A DNA stretch of 50,955 nt from Candidatus Doudnabacteria bacterium RIFCSPHIGHO2_02_FULL_43_13b (GCA_001777655.1 MFER01000006.1:29859-80813); one strand, 5' to 3'; positions 8,073-24,255 are shown, numbered from the stretch's first letter. Program-made: numbers and translations. Notes: generated by a model not told the origin, from the sequence alone.

Positions 8073-9242
8073 ATGTTCATCTCAAGTCATCTTCCGCATT
8101 ATTTTTCCTTTCGAATTAATCGCGAGGTCAGAGAAATTTATTGGCACACGGCCATATATAATTTGGCCTTGGCCATAGTATATATTTTCGAGCCAATTTA
8201 CCTGTATAAACTTGGTTACAGTTTGGCCGATATTTTAGCGTTCTTTTGTGAAATTTATGTTGCTTATGCGATTTTAGTTTTTTTAGGCGCCAAGATTGCC
8301 AGCAAAATTGGATATAAACACTCAATATTAATTTCCTCGGTTTTTTATATTTGTTATTGGCTGACCTTGGTTGGCATTGCAAAGATAGGCTGGTTGTTTT
8401 ATCTCTCTCCGGTAATGTTTGCTTTGCAAAAATCTTTCTTTTGGCCGGCGTATCACGCGGATATCGCCATCAACTCCCTTCATCAGCAGCGGGGCAGAGA
8501 GGTGGGTGTTTTGTTTTCTTTAATTGAGCTGGCCATGATTGCCGGACCGCTGATCGGCGGCCTCGTCTCCTACATCTTTGGTTTTTGGATTTTATTTGCC
8601 ACCGGATCAATCTTGTTGTTATCATCTCTAATCCCGTTGTTTCGGTCAGCGGACATTCATAACCACCACGAATTTAGATTGAAAGATTTTTTACTGGTGT
8701 TAAAACGGCACAAAACTAATTTTTTCGGCTATTGGGGTTATGCGGAAGATCTGATGTTAGGCACACTGTGGCCAGTTTACATTTTTCTGGTGGTGCCGTA
8801 TTTTGTTTTAGTCGGGGCGGTCACGACAGTTGCCAGTTTGGTTGGTAGCGTGTTAATGTTGTACTTAGGTAAATTGGCTGATAAAATAAAACGGACGTTG
8901 CTCATAAAAATAAGCTCCGTCTTCTATGGGTTTACTTGGATGTTTAGGTTTTTGGCCGCAACCCCGCCACTTGTTGTAGTATTTGATGTTTTAACTAGAA
9001 TCGGCAAAGGGATGGTCAATATTCCCATGGTTTCGCTAACTTATGATTTGGCCGGCAGCAGAACGACTGATTACGCGATAGCTTATAGTGTTTTTTACGA
9101 ATTTAGTTTATCTATCGCAAAAATTTTCACGACCTTGGTTGGCATCTGGATTCTGACTAAAACAGGAAATGTGCAATACGTCTTCATTCTAGCCGGAGTC
9201 CTCACCATGTTTTACGGATTTTTGAAAGATAAGAAGAAATAA
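8073..9242 (+). CDS. Polytopic membrane protein, MFS-like transporter
   Basis: 389 aa with about 10-12 hydrophobic segments and no sharp motif recognised. Confidence 0.45.
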   Translation: MFISSHLPHYFSFRINREVREIYWHTAIYNLALAIVYIFEPIYLYKLGYSLADILAFFCEIYVAYAILVFLGAKIASKIGYKHSILISSVFYICYWLTLVGIAKIGWLFYLSPVMFALQKSFFWPAYHADIAINSLHQQRGREVGVLFSLIELAMIAGPLIGGLVSYIFGFWILFATGSILLLSSLIPLFRSADIHNHHEFRLKDFLLVLKRHKTNFFGYWGYAEDLMLGTLWPVYIFLVVPYFVLVGAVTTVASLVGSVLMLYLGKLADKIKRTLLIKISSVFYGFTWMFRFLAATPPLVVVFDVLTRIGKGMVNIPMVSLTYDLAGSRTTDYAIAYSVFYEFSLSIAKIFTTLVGIWILTKTGNVQYVFILAGVLTMFYGFLKDKKK

Positions 9243-9246
9243 TATT

Positions 9247-10482
9247 ATGAGCCTAAAATTAAACGATCCACAACTCTACGATTTGATCGAAAAAGAACGG
9301 AAGCGCCAGGTGGAAGTTTTGGAATTGATTGCTTCGGAAAATTATGTTTCCGACGAAGTTTTAGAGGCGCTTGGGTCTGTTTTGACGAACAAATATGCCG
9401 AAGGATATCCGCGCAAGCGATATTATGCCGGCAATGAAGTAATTGATCAAGTGGAAGAGCTTGCGATTGAGCGAGTGAAAGAAGCTTTTAATCTGCCGAT
9501 TGATTGGCATGTAAACGTCCAGCCTTATTCGGGTAGCCCCGCTAACGTCGAAGCCTATTTCGCCCTGTTACAGCCGAGCGATACCGTGATGGCCATGGAT
9601 TTGGCAAACGGCGGGCACTTAACCCACGGCTCGAAAGTGAATGTCACGGGAAAAACTTATAACTTTGTTCATTATGGGGTTTCGGAAAAAACCGGCAAGT
9701 TAGATTACTTGGAAATTTTAAAGATGGCGGATCGAGTCAAGCCGAAAATGATTGTGTCCGGATTTACCGCTTACCCTCGCGAGATTGATTTTAAAAAATT
9801 TAAAGAGATTGCCGACAAGGTTGGGGCGATCAGCATGGCTGACATTTCCCACATTGGCGGGTTAATCGCGGCTGGCGTGCATCCCTCGCCAATTCCTTTC
9901 TTTGATGTGGTTACCACCACTACTCACAAAACCTTGCGGGGACCGCGAGGAGCAATAATTATGTGCAAAGATAAATATGCCACCGCAATCGATAAAGCCG
10001 TGTTTCCGGGCATGCAAGGGGGACCGCATGAAAACGCAATTGCCGGGATTGCTACGGCCATGAAAGAGGTCAAAACTAATTCATTTCGAAAATATGCCGA
10101 ACAGGTGGTAAAAAACTGCAGAGCCCTAGCCCATGCTTTGCAAGATTTTGGTTTTAAATTAGTATCTGGGGGTACAGATAACCATTTGATATTGATTGAT
10201 TTGACGAATAAAAATATTGGAGGTAAAGATGCTCAAAAACTTTTGGAAAGCGCGGGAATTGTTTTGAATATGAATATGGTCCCGTTCGATAAGCGTTCAC
10301 CATTTGATCCATCGGGAGTCCGGTTAGGGACGGCCGCGATTACTTCGCGGGGGATGAAAGAAAAGGAAATGAGCAAGATTGCCTCCTGGATGGCGGCAGT
10401 AATTACTGATCCTTCGGTTGCCGAAAAAGTTCGCGGTGAGATCAAAAGGTTTACGAAGAATTTCCCCGCCCCTGGACTATGA
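9247..10482 (+). CDS. glyA: Serine hydroxymethyltransferase
   Basis: LIASENYVS, GYPRKRYYAG and TTTTHKTLRGPRG (PLP lysine) motifs. Confidence 0.93.
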   Translation: MSLKLNDPQLYDLIEKERKRQVEVLELIASENYVSDEVLEALGSVLTNKYAEGYPRKRYYAGNEVIDQVEELAIERVKEAFNLPIDWHVNVQPYSGSPANVEAYFALLQPSDTVMAMDLANGGHLTHGSKVNVTGKTYNFVHYGVSEKTGKLDYLEILKMADRVKPKMIVSGFTAYPREIDFKKFKEIADKVGAISMADISHIGGLIAAGVHPSPIPFFDVVTTTTHKTLRGPRGAIIMCKDKYATAIDKAVFPGMQGGPHENAIAGIATAMKEVKTNSFRKYAEQVVKNCRALAHALQDFGFKLVSGGTDNHLILIDLTNKNIGGKDAQKLLESAGIVLNMNMVPFDKRSPFDPSGVRLGTAAITSRGMKEKEMSKIASWMAAVITDPSVAEKVRGEIKRFTKNFPAPGL

Positions 10483-10985
10483 ATTTAGCAATATTTCAGG
10501 CGATTAATAATTCGGCTGGGCAGTGGTCCTGGCTTGATTGGGCCGGAAAATTTTTGGCCCGTGATTTTTTGTTTATTTTTATTGCGATCGTATTAATCTT
10601 GTGGTTTAAGCGAAATCTTCGCTGGCGGGTTTACCTCGCCTTGGCCGCGGCGCTGATTTCTCGTTTTGTGATCGTGGAGTTACTAAAAAAGTGGCTGGAT
10701 CAACCACGACCTTTCGAAGTAGTTTCGAATATTCATCAGCTGTTGGTAGACGAAAAATCAGGATTTTCTTTTCCCTCTGGACATACAGCGATTTTTTTTA
10801 GTTTAGCGTTTGCTTTTTATGGGACAAAATATTTCTGGCCATTTATAGTTTTAGCAATAATTGGATCCTTAGCTCGAATTTTTGTCGGTGTGCATTTTCC
10901 GCTGGATATCGTCGCCAGTGTTTTTATCGCAATGATTGTGGTTTGGTCCCTTAAAAGACTTTTCAAACCTAAGATTTTGGGTTAA
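10479..10985 (+). CDS. PAP2 family phosphatase (undecaprenyl-diphosphatase-like)
   Basis: SFPSGHTA and GVHFPLD acid-phosphatase motifs in a membrane protein. Start overlaps the glyA stop. Confidence 0.7.
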   Translation: MNLAIFQAINNSAGQWSWLDWAGKFLARDFLFIFIAIVLILWFKRNLRWRVYLALAAALISRFVIVELLKKWLDQPRPFEVVSNIHQLLVDEKSGFSFPSGHTAIFFSLAFAFYGTKYFWPFIVLAIIGSLARIFVGVHFPLDIVASVFIAMIVVWSLKRLFKPKILG

Positions 10986-11010
10986 AATAAACTCCATGCC
11001 GTTGAATGAT

Positions 11011-11096
11011 GGCCGAGTGGCGGAATGGCAGACGCAGTGGACTCAAAATCCACCGATCGCAAGATCATGTGGGTTCGACTCCCTCCTCGGCCACCA
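11011..11096 (+). tRNA. tRNA-Leu (anticodon CAA), CCA encoded
   Basis: Acceptor ggccgag/ctcggcc. Anticodon stem gtgga/tccac with loop ctCAAaa. Long variable arm gatc-gcaa-gatc. T-loop ttcgact. Confidence 0.85.
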
Positions 11097-11102
11097 AAAA
11101 AT

Positions 11103-11957
11103 ATGGAAGAAAACAAACAATCACCAACTGAATCAAAATTCGTCCCCCCGCCAGAAAATTTGCCTGTGGTGAAATTGGCGGAAATTTCGATTGATCTGAT
11201 CAAACCGAATCCCTGGCAGCCTCGAAAGACTTTCAACGAACAATCCCTGCAGGAACTTTCAGCTTCGATCAAAGAACACGGGATATTGCAACCACTGGTG
11301 GTTGTGCCCCTAGTCGACGGATTCTATCAGTTGATTATTGGCGAAAGACGGTTGCGGGCGGCTAAACTCGCCGGCTTAACCTTGGTCCCTGCCGTGATTC
11401 ATGATTACATTGAGGAACAGAAAAAGCTGGAGCTGGCTTTGATTGAAAATATCCAACGACATAATCTTGATCCGATCGAAGAAGCTACCGCTTACCAACA
11501 GTTGATTGATCAATATAAATTAACCCAAGAAGAAGTCGCCAGGAAAGTTGGCAAAGGCAGAACCACGATCACGAACATGTTGCGTCTGCTTCACCTGCCT
11601 TTAAAAATCCAAAACGCCCTGTCAGAAGGAACCATCTCCGAAGGACATGCTCGCGCGATATTGGGCCTGACTGGCATGGAAAAGCAAATTGCTTTGTATG
11701 AAATGGTGATTGCTCAGAATATGACAGTCAGAGACGTGGAGGAAAAAGTGCGGGAACTTTTGGAGCGCGCCAAAATAGTCCGAGCGCCGCGTGTCAGCAC
11801 TGATCCGGCAATTCTGGCGCTTGAATCGGAATTGCGCGGCAAGCTGGGTACGAAGGTGCGAGTGCAGAAATCCGGGGAGTCTGGCAAGATCACCATCGAA
11901 TTTTATTCACAGGAAGAGCTAAATAGTTTTTTGGATAAGATTAATAAACTTGACTGA
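11103..11957 (+). CDS. parB: ParB/Spo0J chromosome-partitioning protein
   Basis: NPWQPRK, GILQPLVV, GERRLRAAKLAGL and an HTH (QEEVARKVGKGRTTITN). The track ORF start 11025 overlaps the tRNA; ATG 11103 is preferred. Confidence 0.85.
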   Translation: MEENKQSPTESKFVPPPENLPVVKLAEISIDLIKPNPWQPRKTFNEQSLQELSASIKEHGILQPLVVVPLVDGFYQLIIGERRLRAAKLAGLTLVPAVIHDYIEEQKKLELALIENIQRHNLDPIEEATAYQQLIDQYKLTQEEVARKVGKGRTTITNMLRLLHLPLKIQNALSEGTISEGHARAILGLTGMEKQIALYEMVIAQNMTVRDVEEKVRELLERAKIVRAPRVSTDPAILALESELRGKLGTKVRVQKSGESGKITIEFYSQEELNSFLDKINKLD

Positions 11958-12072
11958 AATAAAGCTTTCGTATACACTATGTTTACGATGAATTTAAGCC
12001 TAACCCAATCATCTTATTGGTTTACCACCGGTCACCGGTGGTAGGTTTGAGTTTGTAGCAAGTTACGAACGA

Positions 12073-12101
12073 ACCCGACCATCGCGGTCGGTGTTTTTTT
12101 T
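12073..12101 (+). terminator. Intrinsic terminator-like hairpin plus T8
   Basis: ccgacc-atcgc-ggtcgg followed by tttttttt. Preceded by a perfect 9-bp hairpin at 12023-12043. Confidence 0.6.
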
Positions 12102-12123
12102 GTCTATTTCCACGGAGGATGTT

Positions 12124-12354
12124 ATGAGTGGACAATTGGTTAGCGATGAGCGGATGCAGATAGAGACGGTTGGTTGCCATGAGACGGTTGAGGTGCACTC
12201 CAGCAACGGCCGACTCATTCGGGTCACGTGCCGAAAATGTCAAGTGAGTTCCACCAACAGAGAGGGGCTGGCGGCTGTTGAAATCTGCAATGCCGCGCCA
12301 GTTGCTTCCGCACCGGTGGCCTCGTCAGGTCGCCGGCCCGGTTGGGCCTTCTGA
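12124..12354 (+). CDS. Hypothetical 76-aa Cys-containing protein (high-GC island)
   Basis: ggagga RBS 5 nt upstream of the ATG. MSGQLVSDERMQ...CHETVEV...CRKC. Confidence 0.45.
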   Translation: MSGQLVSDERMQIETVGCHETVEVHSSNGRLIRVTCRKCQVSSTNREGLAAVEICNAAPVASAPVASSGRRPGWAF

Positions 12355-12360
12355 ATCAGA

Positions 12361-12439
12361 GCGGTCGTAGCTTAAAGGCAGAGCGCTTGCGTCTCACCTG
12401 CGCAGGAGGTTGTGGGTTCGAATCCCATCGTCCGCTCCA
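12361..12439 (+). tRNA. Atypical tRNA / tRNA-like gene with a 4-nt-expanded anticodon arm (Val-CAC or Glu-CTC reading ambiguous)
   Basis: Acceptor gcggtcg/cgtccgc (one T:T). D arm gctt-aaaggca-gagc. T arm gtggg-ttcgaat-cccat. CCA encoded. The anticodon arm cttgcgt-ctcacct-gcgcagg is 2 bp longer than canonical. Confidence 0.5.
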
Positions 12440-12446
12440 TCTTTAC

Positions 12447-12488
12447 GGGTCGGGTTTGCTGTAAGGCAAACCCGACCCTCTTCTTTAT
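12447..12488 (+). terminator. Intrinsic terminator-like hairpin
   Basis: gggtcgggtttgc-tgtaag-gcaaacccgaccc followed by a T-rich tract. Confidence 0.6.
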
Positions 12489-12494
12489 ATAGGG

Positions 12495-12523
12495 TTGACA
12501 CAATTTTTATTTCCTGATAAACT
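12495..12523 (+). promoter_or_regulatory. Sigma70-type promoter (TTGACA-17-TAAACT)
   Basis: ttgaca at 12495-12500, 17-nt spacer, taaact at 12518-12523. Confidence 0.5.
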
Positions 12524-12796
12524 ATTTTCTATGCATAGAGCAATTTGGCACATCTGCGATAAGCATCAGAACTCTCCCAAGTTTTTGGTCATGATTAATA
12601 TTGACCAAGATATTGCAGCTGTTGGCTCATATCATGCATAAGTTTTAACAAAACTAGAAGCAGAGATGAGCCGACCAAGCAGGTCGGATTTTTGTTAGTC
12701 GCAGGCCAACAGGATTGAGAATCGGATTCAGGGCGCAACAGTTGCGCTTTGAAATCGGGGATCAACCCCCACTTCACAACTTTCATGGAGGAATGC

Positions 12797-12997
12797 ATGT
12801 TGGTAAGGATTAATCAGATTGAGTTGGCAGAAGAGGTGGCGCAGTTGCGCTTTCTGCAGCGATCATTGCGGGCAAGGTTGAATTCGCTGTGGATTTCCAG
12901 GCAGCAGCGCCGCGACATTCGCCGTCAGCTGGCGACCATCAGTCCCACTCTCGAGACCAAGGCGGATATTTTGAAAGCTTTTCAAGGAGACTCATAA
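12797..12997 (+). CDS. Hypothetical 66-aa Arg-rich helical protein (high-GC island)
   Basis: ggagga RBS before ATG 12797. The stop overlaps the next start (TAATG). Confidence 0.45.
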   Translation: MLVRINQIELAEEVAQLRFLQRSLRARLNSLWISRQQRRDIRRQLATISPTLETKADILKAFQGDS

Positions 12998-13215
12998 TGA
13001 GCGAGCTCAATGAAGGCTTCAGAGAAGATCCTACACTGCTGGAGGTTTCTGTCAGCGATCCGGAGTCGACACCCGTACAGATCGAGACGGCATCGGCCCA
13101 GATCGTGAGTGATCCCGCGCCGGCAACTCCAGCCAGGCCACCGTCCTTGCCATGGGAGATGGAATACGGCGGGGTCTTGCACGTCGGTCGGCACAAGGGG
13201 TCTGCCTGTGAATGA
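12997..13215 (+). CDS. Hypothetical 72-aa acidic/Pro-rich protein (high-GC island)
   Basis: ATG overlaps the upstream TAA. MSELNEGFREDPTLLEV... Confidence 0.45.
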   Translation: MSELNEGFREDPTLLEVSVSDPESTPVQIETASAQIVSDPAPATPARPPSLPWEMEYGGVLHVGRHKGSACE

Positions 13216-13369
13216 GGACCCAATCGCGGCGAATAACCGGCGGCACGAACTATTTCGCCACATCTACCAGGCCCAGCTGCTGGACCGCACCCGGCCAGCA
13301 GACGACCCTGACGCGACAGCGGCGCGAGTGTTTTTAGCTACCCTCGTGCCACTGCCCCTACACGACTAG
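13208..13369 (+). CDS. Hypothetical ~53-aa protein, putative GTG start overlapping the upstream gene end
   Basis: Open frame (track 13109-13369). GTG 13208 is preceded by aagggg. The start is uncertain. Confidence 0.3.
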   Translation: MNEDPIAANNRRHELFRHIYQAQLLDRTRPADDPDATAARVFLATLVPLPLHD

Positions 13370-13431
13370 TTTGTGCGTCAGCGCATTTCGACCCCGGAGA
13401 ATATCCGGCACCTCCTATGCGTCCGCGTACC

Positions 13432-13478
13432 CCGGACAGGTCCTCGCCCCCAGGCGAGCCTGTCCGGTTTCTTTTTTT
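13432..13478 (+). terminator. Strong intrinsic terminator closing the high-GC island
   Basis: ccggacagg..ctcgcc-ccc-aggcgag..cctgtccgg followed by tttcttttttt. Confidence 0.65.
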
Positions 13479-13535
13479 ATTCGTGAAAATTGATTATAAT
13501 GTTTAATATAGGTCGACAAGAAACGTTTGACGTTT

Positions 13536-13568
13536 CGGAGTGTAGTATAGTGGTAGTACGCGTCCATG
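13536..13568 (+). pseudogene. tRNA 5'-half fragment (paralogous to the 5' half of the adjacent tRNA-Pro)
   Basis: cggagtgtagtatagtggtagtacgcgtccatg versus cgggctgtcgtatagtggtagtacgcgcccatg in tRNA-Pro. No matching 3' half was found. Confidence 0.5.
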
Positions 13569-13586
13569 TCCCCGCACTAAATTTTT

Positions 13587-13660
13587 CGGGCTGTCGTATA
13601 GTGGTAGTACGCGCCCATGGGGTGGGTGTAGTCTGAGTTCGATTCTCAGCAGCCCGACCA
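13587..13660 (+). tRNA. tRNA-Pro (anticodon GGG), CCA encoded
   Basis: Acceptor cgggctg/cagcccg with A73. D arm gtat-agtggta-gtac. Anticodon arm cgccc-atGGGgt-gggtg (G37). T arm ctgag-ttcgatt-ctcag. Confidence 0.85.
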
Positions 13661-13718
13661 AGAAATTTGCCGAAAAATTAGTGCGGGGTATAGGTGCATG
13701 CGAAATCCCGTACTGAAG

Positions 13719-13766
13719 CGTAGCTTCTAGTATTGGGATAGTTCCGGTTCGATTCTCCCGCCACCC
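13719..13766 (+). other. tRNA-like 3' remnant (D-arm-like tagcttc.. and T-loop ggttcgattc without a pairing T stem)
   Basis: gcgtagcttctagtattgggatagttccggttcgattctcccgccaccc. I could not fold a cloverleaf. Confidence 0.3.
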
Positions 13767-14001
13767 AAATTATTATTTAGTCGACAGCGGGATCCCGCCT
13801 TCGGCGGTGACCAGCATTCCGACCAGTATATGAATAAGAAAAAAGAATTATATATTTTTCCAAGTTCGCCGTTCACTATATTTTGGAAGATATTTTTTGG
13901 AGAAGGAAGAACGAAAAAATAGACTGGCTTGAAAAAGAAATCCGGCTTTAGTTTAAAGTTTAATTTTTTAAACAGTTTTAAATAGTTTTTAGTTTTAAAT
14001 A

Positions 14002-14028
14002 GATTGATATATCTTCGCCGATCGGCTA
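14002..14028 (+). promoter_or_regulatory. 27-nt box containing palindrome GCCGATCGGC, upstream copy
   Basis: gattgatatatcttcgccgatcggcta. 25/27 identical to 14585-14611. Confidence 0.6.
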
Positions 14029-14040
14029 ATATGTATATAT

Positions 14041-14586
14041 ATGAAGAAATCGGAAGTTATGAAGGCTATCTTGTATTCTTTTGGCGCGGCAGGAATCGTC
14101 GTAATTGCCATAGCCGTACCAAATGCCGCCATAGCTTTTCAAGGATTGCATAAATCACTTGGTAAATACGAAAAAAACCAGTTTTGCCGCTCGTTTAATT
14201 ATTTGAAAAGAAAGAAAATTGTCGGCATTGGGAAGGATGGTGATCGAACTATCATCAAACTTTTAGATAAAGGAAAAGAGAGAGTAATAAAATTTCGATT
14301 GGAAGATTTAAAACTTACTCCGCAGAAAAAGTGGGACGAGAAATTCCGGTTGGTTTTTTTCGACATTCCGGAAAAATATCGGTACTCGCGGCAGATTTTT
14401 ACGAGCAAACTCCGAGAGATTGGGTTTCTTCCGATCCAGAAAAGCGCTTGGATTTGCCCGCATCCTTGCGATGATGAAATCGAATTTTTGGTTTCAATTT
14501 ACGAAATTAGGCCCTTTGTCAGGATTGTTACTTTCAGTTCTCGGGAAATTGAAAGGTACTGGCAGGAGAAGTTTAAGCTCATTTGA
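14041..14586 (+). CDS. Membrane-anchored wHTH plus Cas2-like/PaaX-like domain protein
   Basis: N-terminal hydrophobic helix. C-terminal WDEKFRLVFFDIPEKYRYSRQIFTSKLREIGFLPIQKSAWICP resembles the Cas2 beta-alpha-beta core and the PaaX family. Paralog at 47169-47720. Confidence 0.55.
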   Translation: MKKSEVMKAILYSFGAAGIVVIAIAVPNAAIAFQGLHKSLGKYEKNQFCRSFNYLKRKKIVGIGKDGDRTIIKLLDKGKERVIKFRLEDLKLTPQKKWDEKFRLVFFDIPEKYRYSRQIFTSKLREIGFLPIQKSAWICPHPCDDEIEFLVSIYEIRPFVRIVTFSSREIERYWQEKFKLI

Positions 14587-14611
14587 TTGATACATTTTCG
14601 CCGATCGGCTA
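14585..14611 (+). promoter_or_regulatory. 27-nt box containing palindrome GCCGATCGGC, downstream copy (overlaps the stop codon)
   Basis: gattgatacattttcgccgatcggcta. Confidence 0.6.
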
Positions 14612-14723
14612 TTTTGTGTTGTCGGAGTTTTTAAAATCACCTAAGATTTGCTATGATGGGAACAGTATTAACCTAATATTTATGTCACAAAAACCTTTCA
14701 ACAATTGAATAAAAATCAGCATT

Positions 14724-15353
14724 ATGAAAACTTACGCCTTTATCGATGCTTCCAACCTATTTTACGGGGGTGAGAAAAGTCTTGGTTGGAAGATAGATTA
14801 TCAGAAATTGAAAAAATACCTGGAGGATAAGTATCAAACCACTCGGGTTTTATACTTTGGCGGCGTCGAGATCCATGATTTTAGATTTGATTATTTGTCC
14901 CATGAAACTGTGACGCTTGAAGAGCTCGAACGCTATCTGTCGGATAAAATCAAAACTAAAGCGGATGAGTTGAATGAAGCGACGTTGGTCTTGCTGGGAC
15001 GCCATCTACAACGAATCAGATTTTATCTGAAACTGCAAAAGTTCGGCTACGAATTGATGCTGAAACCAGTCAAACTTTACGATCAAGAAGATGGCACCAC
15101 GAAAAGAAAAGCCAATTGTGATGTGGATATGGCTTTTTACTTGATGAAAGAAAAAGTTATTTTTGAGAGATGTATTATCTTGTCCGGAGATGGTGACTTT
15201 CTGCCAGTATTGAAGTATCTTAGGGAGCGTAAGAAAGAGGTTATTGTTTTGGCTCGTGGACCAAGGACCGCAAAAAAAATACGCCAGTTTGCTGGCGCCA
15301 ATTTTCGCGACTTTGTTCGCTTGGAGAAATACGTAAAATTTGACGAAAAATAA
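14724..15353 (+). CDS. NYN domain (LabA/DUF88-like, PIN-fold) putative RNase
   Basis: AFIDASNLFYG, CDVDMAFYLM, ILSGDGDFLPVLKYLRERKKEV motifs. Confidence 0.75.
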   Translation: MKTYAFIDASNLFYGGEKSLGWKIDYQKLKKYLEDKYQTTRVLYFGGVEIHDFRFDYLSHETVTLEELERYLSDKIKTKADELNEATLVLLGRHLQRIRFYLKLQKFGYELMLKPVKLYDQEDGTTKRKANCDVDMAFYLMKEKVIFERCIILSGDGDFLPVLKYLRERKKEVIVLARGPRTAKKIRQFAGANFRDFVRLEKYVKFDEK

Positions 15354-15419
15354 ACGGAACGGACATACGAAATATCCGTTCCACGTTTAGTAAATTAAGC
15401 ATACTCCTATTTAACGATT

Positions 15420-15890
15420 TTGTCAATATCTTCAAGAAAACCTAAAAAAGTCATGGTGTTTGGGACGTTTGATTTGCTCCATTTGGGGCATTTGAATTTT
15501 TTGATGCAGGCAAAAGAGTTAGGCGACAAATTGATTGTTTCGGTCGCCCGTGATTTGAATGTGTTTAAAGTTAAGGGCCAACGGCCGATTAATCACGAAA
15601 AATTGCGCCTCAAAAACATAAGTTTGTTGCCAGTTGTCGATAAAGCAGTCTTAGGCGGATTAAAAGATCCTTGGCCTCATATCATAAAAGTGCGACCAGA
15701 TATTATTGCCTTAGGTTATGATCAGAAAATTTATGTGACTAAAGAAAAACCCAAGGGAGCGGCAAGAGAGTTGCAACTAAAGCTGATAGAGAAAGGGTTG
15801 AAGAAAACAGAGGTCGTCCGGCTAAAACCCTTCTGGCCGCAGGTTTATAAAAGCCGGATATTGCGGAGAGAGTTAGGGAGTAAACCTTAG
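15420..15890 (+). CDS. Cytidylyl/adenylyltransferase, RibL-like FAD synthetase (FMN adenylyltransferase)
   Basis: VFGTFDLLHLGHLNFLMQAKELGDKLIVSVARD, VDKAVLG and PDIIALGYDQ resemble archaeal RibL / the glycerol-3-phosphate cytidylyltransferase fold. Start is TTG 15420 or ATG 15453. Confidence 0.6.
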   Translation: MSISSRKPKKVMVFGTFDLLHLGHLNFLMQAKELGDKLIVSVARDLNVFKVKGQRPINHEKLRLKNISLLPVVDKAVLGGLKDPWPHIIKVRPDIIALGYDQKIYVTKEKPKGAARELQLKLIEKGLKKTEVVRLKPFWPQVYKSRILRRELGSKP

Positions 15891-15926
15891 CTTCGGGATA
15901 GGTTGCAAAACGGGTCATGTGCGCTC

Positions 15927-16029
15927 GGCATGAAATTTTTAGCAACGGTTGTCGTCTCGCTAACACTCGACGCAACCTGCGTTCTCGGCCGGATAAGCCG
16001 GCCTGCGAAGGCTGCTAAAAATTTATGCC
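15927..16029 (+). ncRNA. Candidate structured RNA or MITE-like element closed by a 16-bp AT-rich helix
   Basis: ggcatgaaatttttagc pairs with gctaaaaatttatgcc. Inner hairpins are ggttg-t-cgtc..gacg-caacc and ggccgg-ataag-ccggcc. Confidence 0.3.
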
Positions 16030-16083
16030 TCGATCATTAAGTTTTAAAAGTAAAACTTATGAAGAAATTTAAAGGGGTGGTAT

Positions 16084-16449
16084 ATGAAGTTTAGCGGCAT
16101 AGTAAAAAAATATTCTGGCCGTGGGAAGAAATTAGGGTTCCCAACAGCGAACATTGAAGCGCCTAAAAGTTTAGAAGATGGGTTGTATGTTGGGTGGACG
16201 GACGGAAAACCGTCCCTAATTTTTGTTGGGGTGAATGAAACTTTCAATGAAACGGACCGGCGAGCCGAGGTTTATATTTTGGATTTCGATCAGGATCTTT
16301 ATGAAAAACAGATCCAAGTTGAAATTCTCAAAAAAATTCGAGAAGTAAGAAAATTTGACTCGAAAGGAGCGTTGATCGAGCAGATGAAACAGGATGAAGA
16401 GGTTGCTCGAGAGTTTTTTAAAAGATATAATCAAAGAAATATTGACTAA
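16084..16449 (+). CDS. Stand-alone riboflavin kinase (RibF C-terminal domain type)
   Basis: SGRGKKLGFPTANI and EVYILDFDQDLYEKQIQVEILKKIREVRKFDS motifs. Confidence 0.8.
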   Translation: MKFSGIVKKYSGRGKKLGFPTANIEAPKSLEDGLYVGWTDGKPSLIFVGVNETFNETDRRAEVYILDFDQDLYEKQIQVEILKKIREVRKFDSKGALIEQMKQDEEVAREFFKRYNQRNID

Positions 16450-17028
16450 ATGAAAAAAAACGGGTTCACTTTGATAGAATTATTGGTTGTTATCTCAATC
16501 ATTGGTTTTATGGCTGTGTTTGCCATGGTTTCTTTGAAGAGCGCCAGGGACAAAACTCGCGCCGCGAGGATGGCTGCTGATTTTTCTGCCATGCGCAACG
16601 CCTGGGCTTTGTGGCAATCAGATACGGGATCAGCGTTTGTATATGAAAATACTTATGGTAATACCAATTCAGAAGCAACCTGTCATGATGAACCAGTTCT
16701 TTCCGACACTGATTTGTTTACTAATGTCTCCGGTACCAATGGTTGGAAGGGACCTTACTTAGGTTCAGCGCCAAGGGACCCATTTGGCCGGCAATATTCT
16801 TACGATAATGACAATGACATTTGGACTTTTAGTAATAAATGGGGCGGGGTTAATATCCAAGTTCAGTGGTGTAATTCCACGGAGGGCAACCGTTACCTTC
16901 AATTAGCGCCTGAAATAGACCGGATTTATGATAGTGGCGATGGCCCAGACAGCGGTCGGTTCCGATGGGATAATGCGGCCAGCCAAGGAGGGTATGGAAT
17001 AATAGTTGCCAGAAGCAGTACGCAATAA
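16450..17028 (+). CDS. Prepilin-type N-terminal cleavage/methylation domain protein (type IV pilin/pseudopilin)
   Basis: MKKNGFTLIELLVVISIIG signature. Confidence 0.85.
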   Translation: MKKNGFTLIELLVVISIIGFMAVFAMVSLKSARDKTRAARMAADFSAMRNAWALWQSDTGSAFVYENTYGNTNSEATCHDEPVLSDTDLFTNVSGTNGWKGPYLGSAPRDPFGRQYSYDNDNDIWTFSNKWGGVNIQVQWCNSTEGNRYLQLAPEIDRIYDSGDGPDSGRFRWDNAASQGGYGIIVARSSTQ

Positions 17029-23708: not shown

Positions 23709-23779
23709 AAGTTCGGACAGCCGTTTGAAAAAGACACAAAAAAAGCCGCCGGAGCTTACTAAGCTTAGGCGGGGGTTGT

Positions 23780-23953
23780 CTACTTTCCTCGTCCTCCAGG
23801 TAGCACCCGGAACTGCTTCCGAGCCTCCCGGGCCTTTTCGTCGTCCCAACTTCTGTCGACGATTTCCTGGATCTCCTCAAGCTCGCTTCGAGTGATCTTC
23901 TTGCGGGAACGCTTGAAGATGCGCGGGAGCCGAGACTGTTTTACGATTGGCAT
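23780..23953 (-). CDS. Hypothetical 57-aa basic protein (second high-GC island)
   Basis: gggagga RBS. MPIVKQSRLPRIFKRSRKKITRSELEEIQ... Followed by a hairpin plus T7 on the minus strand. Confidence 0.45.
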   Translation of the reverse strand: MPIVKQSRLPRIFKRSRKKITRSELEEIQEIVDRSWDDEKAREARKQFRVLPGGRGK

Positions 23954-23985
23954 GGGTTCCTCCCTTCACATCTCGTTGGCTGCCG

Positions 23986-24216
23986 CTAGAAAACCACGGG
24001 CGGGTCGGGGGGAGTTGGGCCGTCAGGCTTGTGTTTGGCTGCTTCCACGATGGTTCGGAGGTTCTTCTTCGCTTCTTCCCGAGCCTCCGGTCGTCTTGAT
24101 CGAGGCGGTTCGGCCGCAACCGATGACACAGTGTTGTTCTTTCTGCGGCTTAGGATCAGGAATACGACAACGGCCGCGACAATCATCAATAATCCTATAC
24201 CCAGGTTGAAATCCAT
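23986..24216 (-). CDS. Hypothetical 76-aa single-pass membrane protein (second high-GC island)
   Basis: aggaga RBS before the internal ATG. MDFNLGIGLLMIVAAVVVFLIL then a charged Pro-rich tail. Confidence 0.45.
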   Translation of the reverse strand: MDFNLGIGLLMIVAAVVVFLILSRRKNNTVSSVAAEPPRSRRPEAREEAKKNLRTIVEAAKHKPDGPTPPDPPVVF

Positions 24217-24255
24217 GTTTGCACTCTCCTGTTTTGTCGTCCTCCGTTTGGCCCT

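Follow-up and report, generated by a model that had tools for sequence, protein, structure and literature searches.

Tandem modules with putative leader-peptide attenuators, orphan mini-genes, and a non-canonical tRNA downstream of parB in a Candidatus Doudnabacteria genome

We analyzed the DNA that follows parB in Candidatus Doudnabacteria bacterium RIFCSPHIGHO2_02_FULL_43_13b (GCA_001777655.1, MFER01000006.1:29859-80813). In the window (the whole stretch of 50,955 nucleotides), a first-pass annotation, made from the sequence alone, had described the interval 12015-13480 as a foreign island of high G+C (GC) content between parB and a tRNA cluster. We arrive at a different reading, which we consider probable: the locus consists of tandem attenuator-gated modules that are specific to a Doudnabacteria-like clade and carry fast-turnover mini-genes (the cargo) together with a non-canonical tRNA. 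The regulatory part of the locus is solid; the biology of the cargo and of the tRNA could turn out to be mundane or notable. The modules share a common plan, namely, a promoter-like site, a short open reading frame (ORF; usually beginning with ATGAAy), a hairpin with a T-run, overlapping or abutting ORFs led by GGAGG, and a final terminator. In most leaders, 7 to 11 nt separate the -10 box from the start of the short ORF (16 nt in L001-2), and the leader hairpin has the form CCGACC/GGTCGG or CCGGCC/GGCCGG. A scan of a genome collection for ParB gave 80 loci, and the relatives used for the comparison of layouts have 64-75% ParB identity.

Covariation supports an antiterminator helix in the leader of module 2 (12495-13478), which contains the following features.

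12495-12523, plus strand: promoter-like site P2, TTGACA-17-TAAACT with extended TG (10/12 consensus matches)
12531-12641, plus strand: type-2 leader ORF, MHRAIWHICDKHQNSPKFLVMINIDQDIAAVGSYHA and stop codon, starting 7 nt after the -10 box
12666-12693, plus strand: antiterminator 3' arm (12666-12675, ATGAGCCGAC), overlapping terminator T-att; 69 bits with covariance model R1
12671-12693, plus strand: terminator T-att, CCGACC (12671-12676) / GGTCGG (12682-12687), then T5; 91.7% paired across leaders

Eight type-2 leaders were found in six species (one in the window, two each in relatives L001 and L002, and one each in L003, L004, and L005). Their peptides are 25 to 38 amino acids (aa) long and mostly end with VGS(Y/N)RKR before the stop codon. 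In the window, the last codons of the leader (12621-12630, GTTGGCTCAT) provide the 5' arm of an antiterminator, and in all type-2 leaders the VGSY codons (GGTCGGTTCA or a variant) are complementary to a sequence with the terminator 5' arm at its end (TGAACCGACC). Indeed, the RNAalifold consensus structure of the type-2 leaders is this long-range antiterminator helix. Across the eight leaders, the 9-bp helix is 91.7% paired, and 4/9 pairs are changed on both sides. The observed covariation was reached by none of 500 shuffles, and pairing fell to 8-49% in controls with slid partners. When the arms of the window (GTTGGCTC / GAGCCGAC) are compared with those of L003 (GGTCGGTTC / GAACCGACC), a compensatory change is seen outside the terminator stem. 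The terminator 5' arm, CCGACC, is shared with the antiterminator.

The minimum free energy (MFE) fold of six complete free leaders is the antiterminator. When a ribosome footprint of 28 nt was simulated on the last codons or on the stop codon of window leader 2, the terminator became the MFE structure; with the footprint farther upstream, the antiterminator remained. Furthermore, a promoter scan revealed no promoter-like site between T-att and ORF2. Of the signals listed here, the same scan picked up the promoter-like sites and two terminators out of four. Type 2 appears to combine what is expected of a leader-peptide attenuator, a terminator without a later promoter and a terminator-exclusive antiterminator that overlaps the ORF. 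The sequence of leader 2 thereby encodes a switch in which completed translation favors termination and missing or delayed translation favors read-through, and such a switch may well operate in cells.

The covariance model R1, derived from the 3' portion of type-2 leaders, was searched over 81 sources. It scored 55-87 bits on the eight type-2 leaders of the window and L001 to L005, and gave weaker matches (17-30 bits) to type-1 leaders and to one more candidate in L003. The 70 remaining Patescibacteria loci, which are more distant, and the rest of the window gave no credible R1 match.

Module 1 (11950-12478) starts at the end of parB and contains the following features.

11950-11978, plus strand: promoter-like site P1, TTGACT-17-TACACT (9/12 consensus matches), overlapping the last parB codons
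11988-12044, plus strand: type-1 leader ORF, MNLSLTQSSYWFTTGHRW and stop codon, starting 9 nt after the -10 box and containing a hairpin (12024-12042)
12075-12101, plus strand: intrinsic terminator T1, CCGACC-ATCGC-GGTCGG (hairpin 12075-12091), then T8, between leader ORF 1 and the ribosome binding site (RBS) of ORF1
12124-12354, plus strand: cargo ORF1, 76 aa, Cys/His-containing, with GGAGGA 5 nt upstream
12361-12439, plus strand: tRNA-like gene, 79 nt, 6 nt after ORF1; called by ARAGORN; 50.2 bits with the Rfam tRNA model (gathering score, 29)
12447-12478, plus strand: terminator T2, a 14-bp hairpin that follows the tRNA-like gene and ends module 1; a recurrent contig or scaffold break point

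Type-1 leader peptides of 16 to 20 aa are encoded directly after parB in seven species (the window and L001 to L006). Their consensus is MNLxxSQxxFWFxxxxG, with M1 and W11 invariant and the Trp residue flanked by F or Y; type-2 leaders show no obvious run of regulatory codons. Between species, the type-1 codons differ synonymously at L (TTA/CTA/TTG) and at Y/F, which suggests that the ORF is translated. Upstream of the leader-1 ORF, a promoter-like sequence equivalent to P1 was read from the sequences of L002, L003, and L006 as a consensus match only, and the mRNA of leader 1 is probably near-leaderless. The pattern CCGACC N3-7 GGTCGG occurs twice in the window, both times at the two leaders, with 0.01 occurrences expected. 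No site between T1 and ORF1 fitted in the promoter scan, implying that ORF1 and the tRNA-like gene are transcribed only by read-through of the T8 terminator. Similarly, there is no promoter between ORF1 and the tRNA-like gene, and they would therefore be cotranscribed. Module 1 probably attenuates like module 2. We liken it to trp and phe leaders because its (F/Y)-W-(F/Y) codons sit just 5' of the internal hairpin.

The mechanism that we propose is ribosome-dependent transcription attenuation. Each module would start with a promoter of the sigma-70 type and a short, near-leaderless ORF, followed by an intrinsic terminator and by RBS-led, coupled, GC-rich small genes, with ORF1 and the cotranscribed non-canonical tRNA as the cargo of module 1 and ORF2 to ORF4 as that of module 2. 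For module 2, the 5' arm of a 9- to 13-bp antiterminator would be supplied by the final leader codons, and the terminator 5' arm would serve as its 3' arm. A ribosome at the end of the leader would mask the antiterminator arm, leaving the terminator free to form and the cargo silent. Without ribosomes, or with ribosomes that are slow or stall earlier, the antiterminator would form instead and allow transcription of the cargo. Module 1 would behave similarly, with the aromatic codons before its internal hairpin acting as in a trp or phe leader. Thus, translational stress or a shortage of aromatic amino acids would turn the cargo on.

The layout is conserved among relatives. Nucleotide alignment showed conserved synteny upstream of parB, and the alignments of L001 and L003 run through parB up to window position 12103. 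Beyond this position, the alignable parts are the odd tRNA (L001, 85%), tRNA-Pro, a 31-nt terminator hairpin, and 55 nt at 12715-12768 (L003, 91%). The order parB, leader 1, cargo, leader 2, cargo is also found in L001, L004, and L005. One type-1 module and two type-2 modules are present in L002, and L003 and L006 have leader 1 after parB, the type-2 module of L003 being located 7 kb away. The regulatory scaffold is native and vertically conserved.

The cargo behaves differently from this scaffold. By BLASTP, phmmer, and pairwise comparison, no significant similarity was detected between the cargo of the window and that of relatives or among relatives (best score, 10 bits), and ten cargo ORFs from relatives had no Pfam match. 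An apparent resemblance of ORF1 to an L001 ORF ("C-H..LIRV..CxxC") was not supported. What recurs is only the broad character of the proteins: the first one behind a type-2 leader is usually helical and rich in Arg, Glu, and Leu, and the cargo often includes a small Cys/His protein and an acidic, Pro-rich protein. GC profiles revealed GC-rich patches after parB also in L001, L002, L003, L006, and L009. The GC content at third codon positions (GC3) of the relatives' cargo is 0.47-0.74, which in each relative that we examined exceeds the background GC of the locus around it. Since the cargo differs completely between sister species and its GC3 is far above that of the host, it has most likely been replaced repeatedly from an outside pool of higher GC. 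A conserved AT-rich scaffold with non-homologous GC-rich cargo is better explained by repeated replacement than by a single old insertion, which would be expected to have ameliorated.

Between L001 and L096, which are 99.9% identical and belong to the same species, a 205-nt insertion or deletion (L001 10447-10651) starts at the tRNA-Pro 3' end, about two bases past the annotated CCA. Contig L102 ends at the same position, which marks a strain-variable junction at the tRNA 3' end.

In the window, GC counts of 40/60 at 13081-13140 and 26/60 at 14041-14100, given by the first-pass annotation, were exact. The sharp jump in composition that it reported is real and extends to synonymous sites: GC3 is 0.61, 0.63, 0.64, and 0.70 in ORF1 to ORF4, compared to 0.44 ± 0.04 (maximum, 0.52) in 29 long host ORFs. 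The highest GC of any 300 nt in the window, 0.64 at 13051-13350, is about 4 standard deviations (SD) over the mean (mean, 0.431; SD, 0.05). However, the island is not uniform, since two GC-rich cargo blocks (12124-12440, GC 0.587; 12785-13480, GC 0.582) are split by a host-like regulatory segment of 344 nt (12441-12784, GC 0.427).

A second GC-rich (0.58) cassette of small ORFs is located at 23740-24240 on the minus strand, between fusA and the next gene, probably tuf. It has a promoter-like site, an RBS-led 76-aa membrane-anchored ORF, a 57-aa basic ORF, and a final terminator, is without leader or attenuator, and gave no family matches. GC-rich orphan mini-genes are thus not unique to the parB locus in this genome.

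The window belongs to a genome of the candidate phyla radiation (CPR)/Patescibacteria. Its ParB (~11100-11957) shares 72% identity with the ParB proteins of two Candidatus Doudnabacteria metagenome-assembled genomes (MAGs) and 75% with that of an unclassified Patescibacteria MAG. Core genes flank the locus upstream (SHMT, PAP2, tRNA-Leu, and ParB) and downstream (PaaX_M/Cas2-like, NYN, and cytidylyltransferase). DNA identical to the locus is present in many Rifle groundwater assemblies. The possibility that the island is an assembly chimera joining the DNA of two organisms had to be considered, since several contigs terminate at its borders. Contig ends cluster at 12463-12488, where the terminator behind the tRNA-like gene forms a perfect 13-bp inverted repeat, and at 13606-13612 in tRNA-Pro, at an 18-nt exact repeat of the tRNA 5' half, so that the break points match repeats. 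Moreover, an independent assembly (L124) is identical to the window across 9000-17000, and a second one (L123) covers the same range except for two scaffold gaps. The parB-side junction is crossed by L123, L127, L128, and L129, the last three of which end inside the island or in tRNA-Pro, and the tRNA-Pro/PaaX-side junction is crossed by L125 and L126; these contigs stem from different samples and assemblers. With both junctions, which the first-pass annotation had proposed to check, supported by several independent assemblies, the island is not chimeric and the chimera reading, to which we give practically no weight, is effectively refuted.

Three short contigs span only ~12471-13612 or ~12482/12488-13610. 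Another contig of 1.3 kb, L130, joins a dTDP-glucose-dehydratase/rfbB-like gene (its positions 1-197) to window 12482-13610, and this gene has no credible match in the 51-kb window. Module 2 may occur in a second genomic context or strain, or L130 may be chimeric.

The first-pass annotation had suggested that the whole interval is what is left of a single integrated mobile element (phage, plasmid, or satellite) whose donor was much richer in GC, lying beside tRNA genes and possibly carrying an addiction, defense, or hijacking cassette. Part of this idea stands, because the cargo is orphan and GC3 shifted and looks acquired or rapidly replaced. It also draws on the duplicated tRNA-Pro 5' half at 13533-13568, on the contig breaks at 12463-12488 and 13606-13612, and on L130, where 12482 onward is joined to another left flank with the rfbB-like gene. 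Furthermore, in L008 (58% ParB identity) tRNA-Pro follows parB after 52 nt with nothing between. Such a locus lacking the island had been named as something to search for, and L008 is a candidate for it, but six relatives closer than L008 carry equivalent modules at the site. The notion of one self-contained element fell, because the framing promoters, leaders, and terminators are host-like in composition and conserved at the same place after parB in six related species (64-75% ParB identity). The entry hairpin and the T8 terminator, which had been assigned to the foreign insert, align to L001 and L003 as core DNA up to 12103. Among the genes called in the 4 kb to the left and to the right, none matched a recombinase or integrase family, and the island is not bracketed by repeats derived from a tRNA: the sole pair, 13533-13568 and 13584-13619, lies 51 nt apart on the right side. 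A viral origin found no support either, as two scans of viral contigs and BLAST against fetched viral loci gave nothing related and PHROGs was empty. PADLOC detected no known defense system, and no result points to an addiction, defense, or hijacking cassette. In the viral contigs, matches to the terminator-hairpin pattern shared at most ~33 nt with the modules and were rejected. We consider a single mobile remnant unlikely and prefer the reading of native, attenuator-gated modules with exchanged cargo.

On the right side, the tRNA-Pro(GGG) gene (13587-13660) sits within an apparent second, split tRNA-Pro-like gene (13533-13775). The 5' half of the latter (13536-13568) ends in the anticodon loop, and a 16- to 17-nt inverted repeat (13570-13585 / 13673-13688) brackets the intact tRNA-Pro. 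Behind these, the split unit continues with a conserved block, GGTGCATGCGAAATCCC ... TTGGGATAG, and closes with a decayed 3' half, TTCCGGTTCGATTCTCCCGCCACCCA. The same nested layout is found in L009 (10497-10860), where the outer acceptor stem can pair. In this region, no Rfam group I intron was detected, and the intron mode of ARAGORN gave no credible split tRNA. Farther downstream, a 33-nt direct repeat (88% identical; 14002-14034 and 14585-14617) contains the palindrome GCCGATCGGC. Its copies flank the PaaX_M/Cas2-like gene (14041-14586), the second one lying upstream of the NYN gene, and the repeat is possibly an operator for the PaaX_M/Cas2-like regulator.

Downstream of T-att, module 2 contains an additional RNA element, three cargo ORFs, and the final terminator.

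12715-12772, plus strand: 5' untranslated region (5'-UTR) hairpin element, a 14-bp stem (GAUUCAGGGCGCAAC..) and then a GGGG-AUCAA-CCCC hairpin, conserved with L003
12797-12997, plus strand: cargo ORF2, 66 aa, Arg-rich, helical, with GGAGGA 5 nt upstream; alternative start at 12785
12997-13215, plus strand: cargo ORF3, 72 aa, acidic, Pro-rich; its start overlaps the ORF2 stop (TAATG, 12995-12999)
13208-13369, plus strand: cargo ORF4, 53 aa, GTG start, overlapping ORF3 by 8 nt (GTGAATGA); weak RBS
13432-13478, plus strand: terminator T3, a hairpin of -29.6 kcal/mol and then a T-run, ending module 2

The elements that the first-pass annotation had noticed are present: the entry hairpin and the T8 terminator; the RBS-led 76-aa Cys-containing ORF with the tRNA-like gene 6 nt after it and a terminator; the TTGACA-17-TAAACT promoter-like site; the three small ORFs with overlapping stops and starts (TAATG; GTG at 13208); and the strong terminator at 13432-13478. 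The 5'-UTR element is 91% identical to L003 16147-16201, which lies in another genomic context, 7 kb from parB. In its long stem, one pair is changed on both sides (G-C to A-U) and one pair on one side, and the similarity ends abruptly ~25 nt before the RBS; from there on the two sequences are unrelated, and the cargo thus differs even behind homologous leaders. This element had no Rfam family match.

Are the cargo ORFs genes? GGAGG-type motifs are located 5 to 7 nt before the starts of ORF1, ORF2, and ORF3, and such motifs precede the cargo ORFs in every relative. ORF2 and ORF4 show coding-like GC contents at the three codon positions (GC1>GC2<GC3; 0.52/0.40/0.63 and 0.76/0.41/0.70, respectively). 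ORF1 was called by several gene callers in independent assemblies, and ORF3 is found on at least 23 contigs of the same organism. ORF4 is uncalled in public assemblies and is the least certain gene. Consistent with the earlier statement that none of the four proteins resembles a known family, Pfam, PHROGs, PADLOC, and NCBIfam gave no match for any of them. Only self-matches were found for ORF1 and ORF3 among 5.8 billion proteins and for ORF2 among 1.84 billion representatives, and the search of the 5.8 billion proteins with ORF4 gave no candidate. The AlphaFold model of ORF1 has low confidence (predicted local distance difference test score [pLDDT], 56), contains only a β-hairpin at residues 15-42, and was too poor for a fold search.

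These results could also be read to mean that the leaders are independent small-protein or small RNA genes, that the GC-rich stretches are non-coding or structured RNA, and that the four micro-ORFs arose by chance. GC-rich DNA indeed yields long ORFs, and both strands of 12889-13369 carry ORFs of 86-108 aa. The missing protein homologues of ORF1 to ORF4, the absence of codon-position periodicity in ORF1, and its low-confidence structure model point in the same direction. Against chance speak the correctly spaced GGAGG-type motifs before ORF1 to ORF3 and the relatives' cargo ORFs, the overlapping stops and starts, and the coding-type GC periodicity of ORF2 and ORF4. Structured RNA was rejected, since the GC-rich stretches showed no excess RNA folding (z = -0.76 and -1.13) and had no Rfam family. 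Searched at E ≤ 1 in the locus and at gathering scores in the whole window, Rfam returned only three tRNAs; a sub-threshold L20-leader match overlapping the tRNA-like gene and its terminator was rejected. We judge this alternative improbable; ORF1 to ORF3 are probable genes, and ORF4 is a possible gene.

The second unusual part of the cargo is the tRNA-like gene of module 1. Many of its parts are normal: the acceptor stem has 7 bp, the D arm contains GG, the variable loop is 5 nt long, the T arm combines a 5-bp stem with the loop UUCGAAU, and CCA is encoded. According to RNAfold and manual pairing, however, the anticodon stem has 7 bp, CUUGCGU/GCGCAGG (C-G, U.G, U-A, G-C, C-G, G-C, and U.G), and the arm is four nt longer than standard. 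The 7-nt anticodon loop, CUCACCU, contains U33 and has C at position 37 instead of a purine. Compared to a canonical elongator, the gene has the expected acceptor, D arm, T arm, and CCA, and it departs in the 5-bp stem and the purine at position 37. The formal reading by ARAGORN is Val(CAC). The acceptor has G1-C72, C2-G71, G3-C70, and U73, which we take to be the bacterial glycine identity set. A resemblance to tRNA-Gly(UCC), which we presume from identity elements and from a known sequence, is a lead only. BLAST gave no isotype match in E. coli genomes, and the matching phage tRNAs were of mixed isotypes.

The orthologue in L001 differs at 12/79 positions (85% identity), 10 of which are stem positions; all loops are identical. 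Two pairs are changed on both sides, one in the anticodon stem (U-A to A-U) and one in the D stem (C-G to U-A), and the anticodon stem also differs by a change of U.G to C-G. In the covariation test, 128/500 shuffles reached the observed value, which for two sequences is not statistical. Since the neighboring cargo is unalignable and the tRNA is 85% identical, the RNA, with its long stem and its loop, appears to be under purifying selection. At the same relative place, L002 has a tRNA-like gene with an anticodon arm of standard length (4 bp and a G-A mismatch) and the loop ACCCACC without U33. In L009, a Zn-ribbon ORF is followed by an incomplete tRNA-like piece whose loop contains CUCACC. CACC is the element common to the loops in the window, L001, L002, and L009. 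The Rfam tRNA model revealed no further copies in L004, L005, L006, and L009. A metagenome scan gave only copies from the L001 species and unrelated sequences sharing the pattern, and viral contigs contained only unrelated tRNA fragments.

Decay is another way to view this gene: the tRNA would be a non-functional duplicate left by an old integration or duplication, and the cargo ORFs would be neutral junk under deletion. The U5-U68 mismatch in the acceptor stem of the window copy, the C-C mismatch in the anticodon stem of the L001 copy, the partial piece in L009, and the occurrence of this tRNA family in very few species would all fit. What speaks against decay is that two species with unalignable neighboring DNA have identical loops, compensatory stem changes, and the same 7-bp stem and CUCACCU loop, and that the Rfam score is far over the gathering score. 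In addition, CPR genomes are small and usually purge junk. We consider decay hardly plausible, and the gene appears to be functional rather than decayed.

With an anticodon stem two pairs too long, this tRNA would have its anticodon misplaced relative to the CCA end, which makes ordinary decoding doubtful. Two candidate roles were rejected: the supply of a rare codon, since GUG makes up 31% of the host Val codons, and pairing of the CUCACC loop in cis, since neither GGTGAG nor AGGTGA occurs in the window locus or in L001. A speculative view, which we regard as rather unlikely, is that the long-stemmed tRNA is induced by stress and serves not in decoding but as an effector or regulator with the shape of a tRNA, cut by RNase P/Z from an attenuator-gated transcript that also yields a small Zn-ribbon-like protein. 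On this view, the locus as a whole would represent a new kind of translation-surveillance system in CPR bacteria, in which conserved ribosome-sensing leaders switch on interchangeable cargo, e.g., against attack on tRNAs or ribosomes. In a survey of 1.7 million bacterial tRNAs, anticodon stems of 2, 3, 6, and 7 bp together account for 0.2% and were left unanalyzed (PMC13092985, 2026), and a review lists only cases with 6 bp (PMC7609411). In the literature, we found nothing on 7-bp anticodon stems beyond a count.

Several points weigh against tandem attenuator-gated modules with exchanged cargo. The promoters, the terminators, and the translation of the leaders are predicted from sequence alone. 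In type-2 leaders, the conserved peptide end and the antiterminator arm are the same nucleotides, so that conservation of peptide and RNA is inseparable. For the type-1 leader of the window, an antiterminator-like fold appeared at only one simulated ribosome position, and no alternative helix was consistent over the seven species. As to the cargo, neither a mechanism nor a donor for its replacement was found, and its persistently high GC could result from selection rather than import. All population copies of the cargo are identical, which precluded a test of the ratio of nonsynonymous to synonymous substitutions. Finally, the RBS of ORF4 is weak.

The CPR/Patescibacteria are uncultivated and, to our knowledge, almost nothing is known of their gene regulation; our literature search retrieved nothing on such loci or on attenuators in Patescibacteria. 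The locus adds two lineage-specific families of leader-peptide attenuators that are absent from Rfam, one of them with covariation support, and the leaders give a concrete, testable example of ribosome-dependent regulation in CPR. A conserved regulatory scaffold combined with fully non-homologous, persistently GC-rich cargo is an unusual evolutionary pattern. Moreover, the tRNA is a conserved natural representative with a 7-bp anticodon stem, a class counted in surveys and not studied. If functional, it bears on the tRNA geometry tolerated by translation or on non-translational users of tRNAs.

Among known systems, the trpL, pheL, and hisL attenuators share with our leaders a short ORF in the 5' leader, a terminator before the structural genes, and, for type 2, an exclusive antiterminator predicted to depend on ribosome position; like them, the type-1 leader has an aromatic triplet around an invariant Trp. 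In contrast to these attenuators, the cargo consists of orphan mini-genes and a tRNA instead of a biosynthetic operon, the leaders lack runs of a single codon, the mRNAs look near-leaderless, and there is no Rfam family. Additionally, the type-2 leader has no obvious anti-antiterminator (region 1), and absence of translation would therefore switch the cargo on. In leader-peptide attenuators that respond to antibiotics or translation stress (ermC/cat type, bmrCD, mef/mel, and ABC-F genes), stalled or impaired translation of a short ORF upstream relieves termination and thereby induces the genes behind it (PMC4191407, PMC4335068). The predicted logic of our leaders is the same, but the genes of the locus match no known resistance family and the elements are confined to a small CPR clade.

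The tRNA can be compared with tRNASec and tRNAPyl (6-bp anticodon stems) and with bacterial tRNAs having 4-bp stems, which are otherwise normal cloverleafs and deviate only in the length of the anticodon stem. Unlike all of these, it has a 7-bp stem with standard 7/5 acceptor and T arms and C37, combines a glycine-type acceptor with a formal valine anticodon, and is cotranscribed with a small ORF behind an attenuator. The E. coli operon thrU-tyrU-glyT-thrT-tufB combines tRNAs and an mRNA. There, as predicted for our locus, a tRNA and a protein gene lie in one transcription unit that needs processing by RNase P/Z; in our locus, however, a non-canonical tRNA lies 3' of the ORF, and a terminator gates the unit.

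The locus resembles tRNA-associated genomic islands in its atypical composition, its orphan genes, its position between tRNA genes, a partial tRNA duplicate, and its absence from one relative. It differs from them in that no integrase or flanking att site was found, the scaffold is conserved across species, and modules occur also away from tRNA genes (L003 16.0-16.8 kb). With regard to integron cassette arrays, the hairpins bounding the cargo carry terminator-like T-runs, and no tyrosine recombinase is nearby. In summary, leader-peptide attenuation is a known form of regulation, of which these leader families, together with their cargo and tRNA, are new variants.

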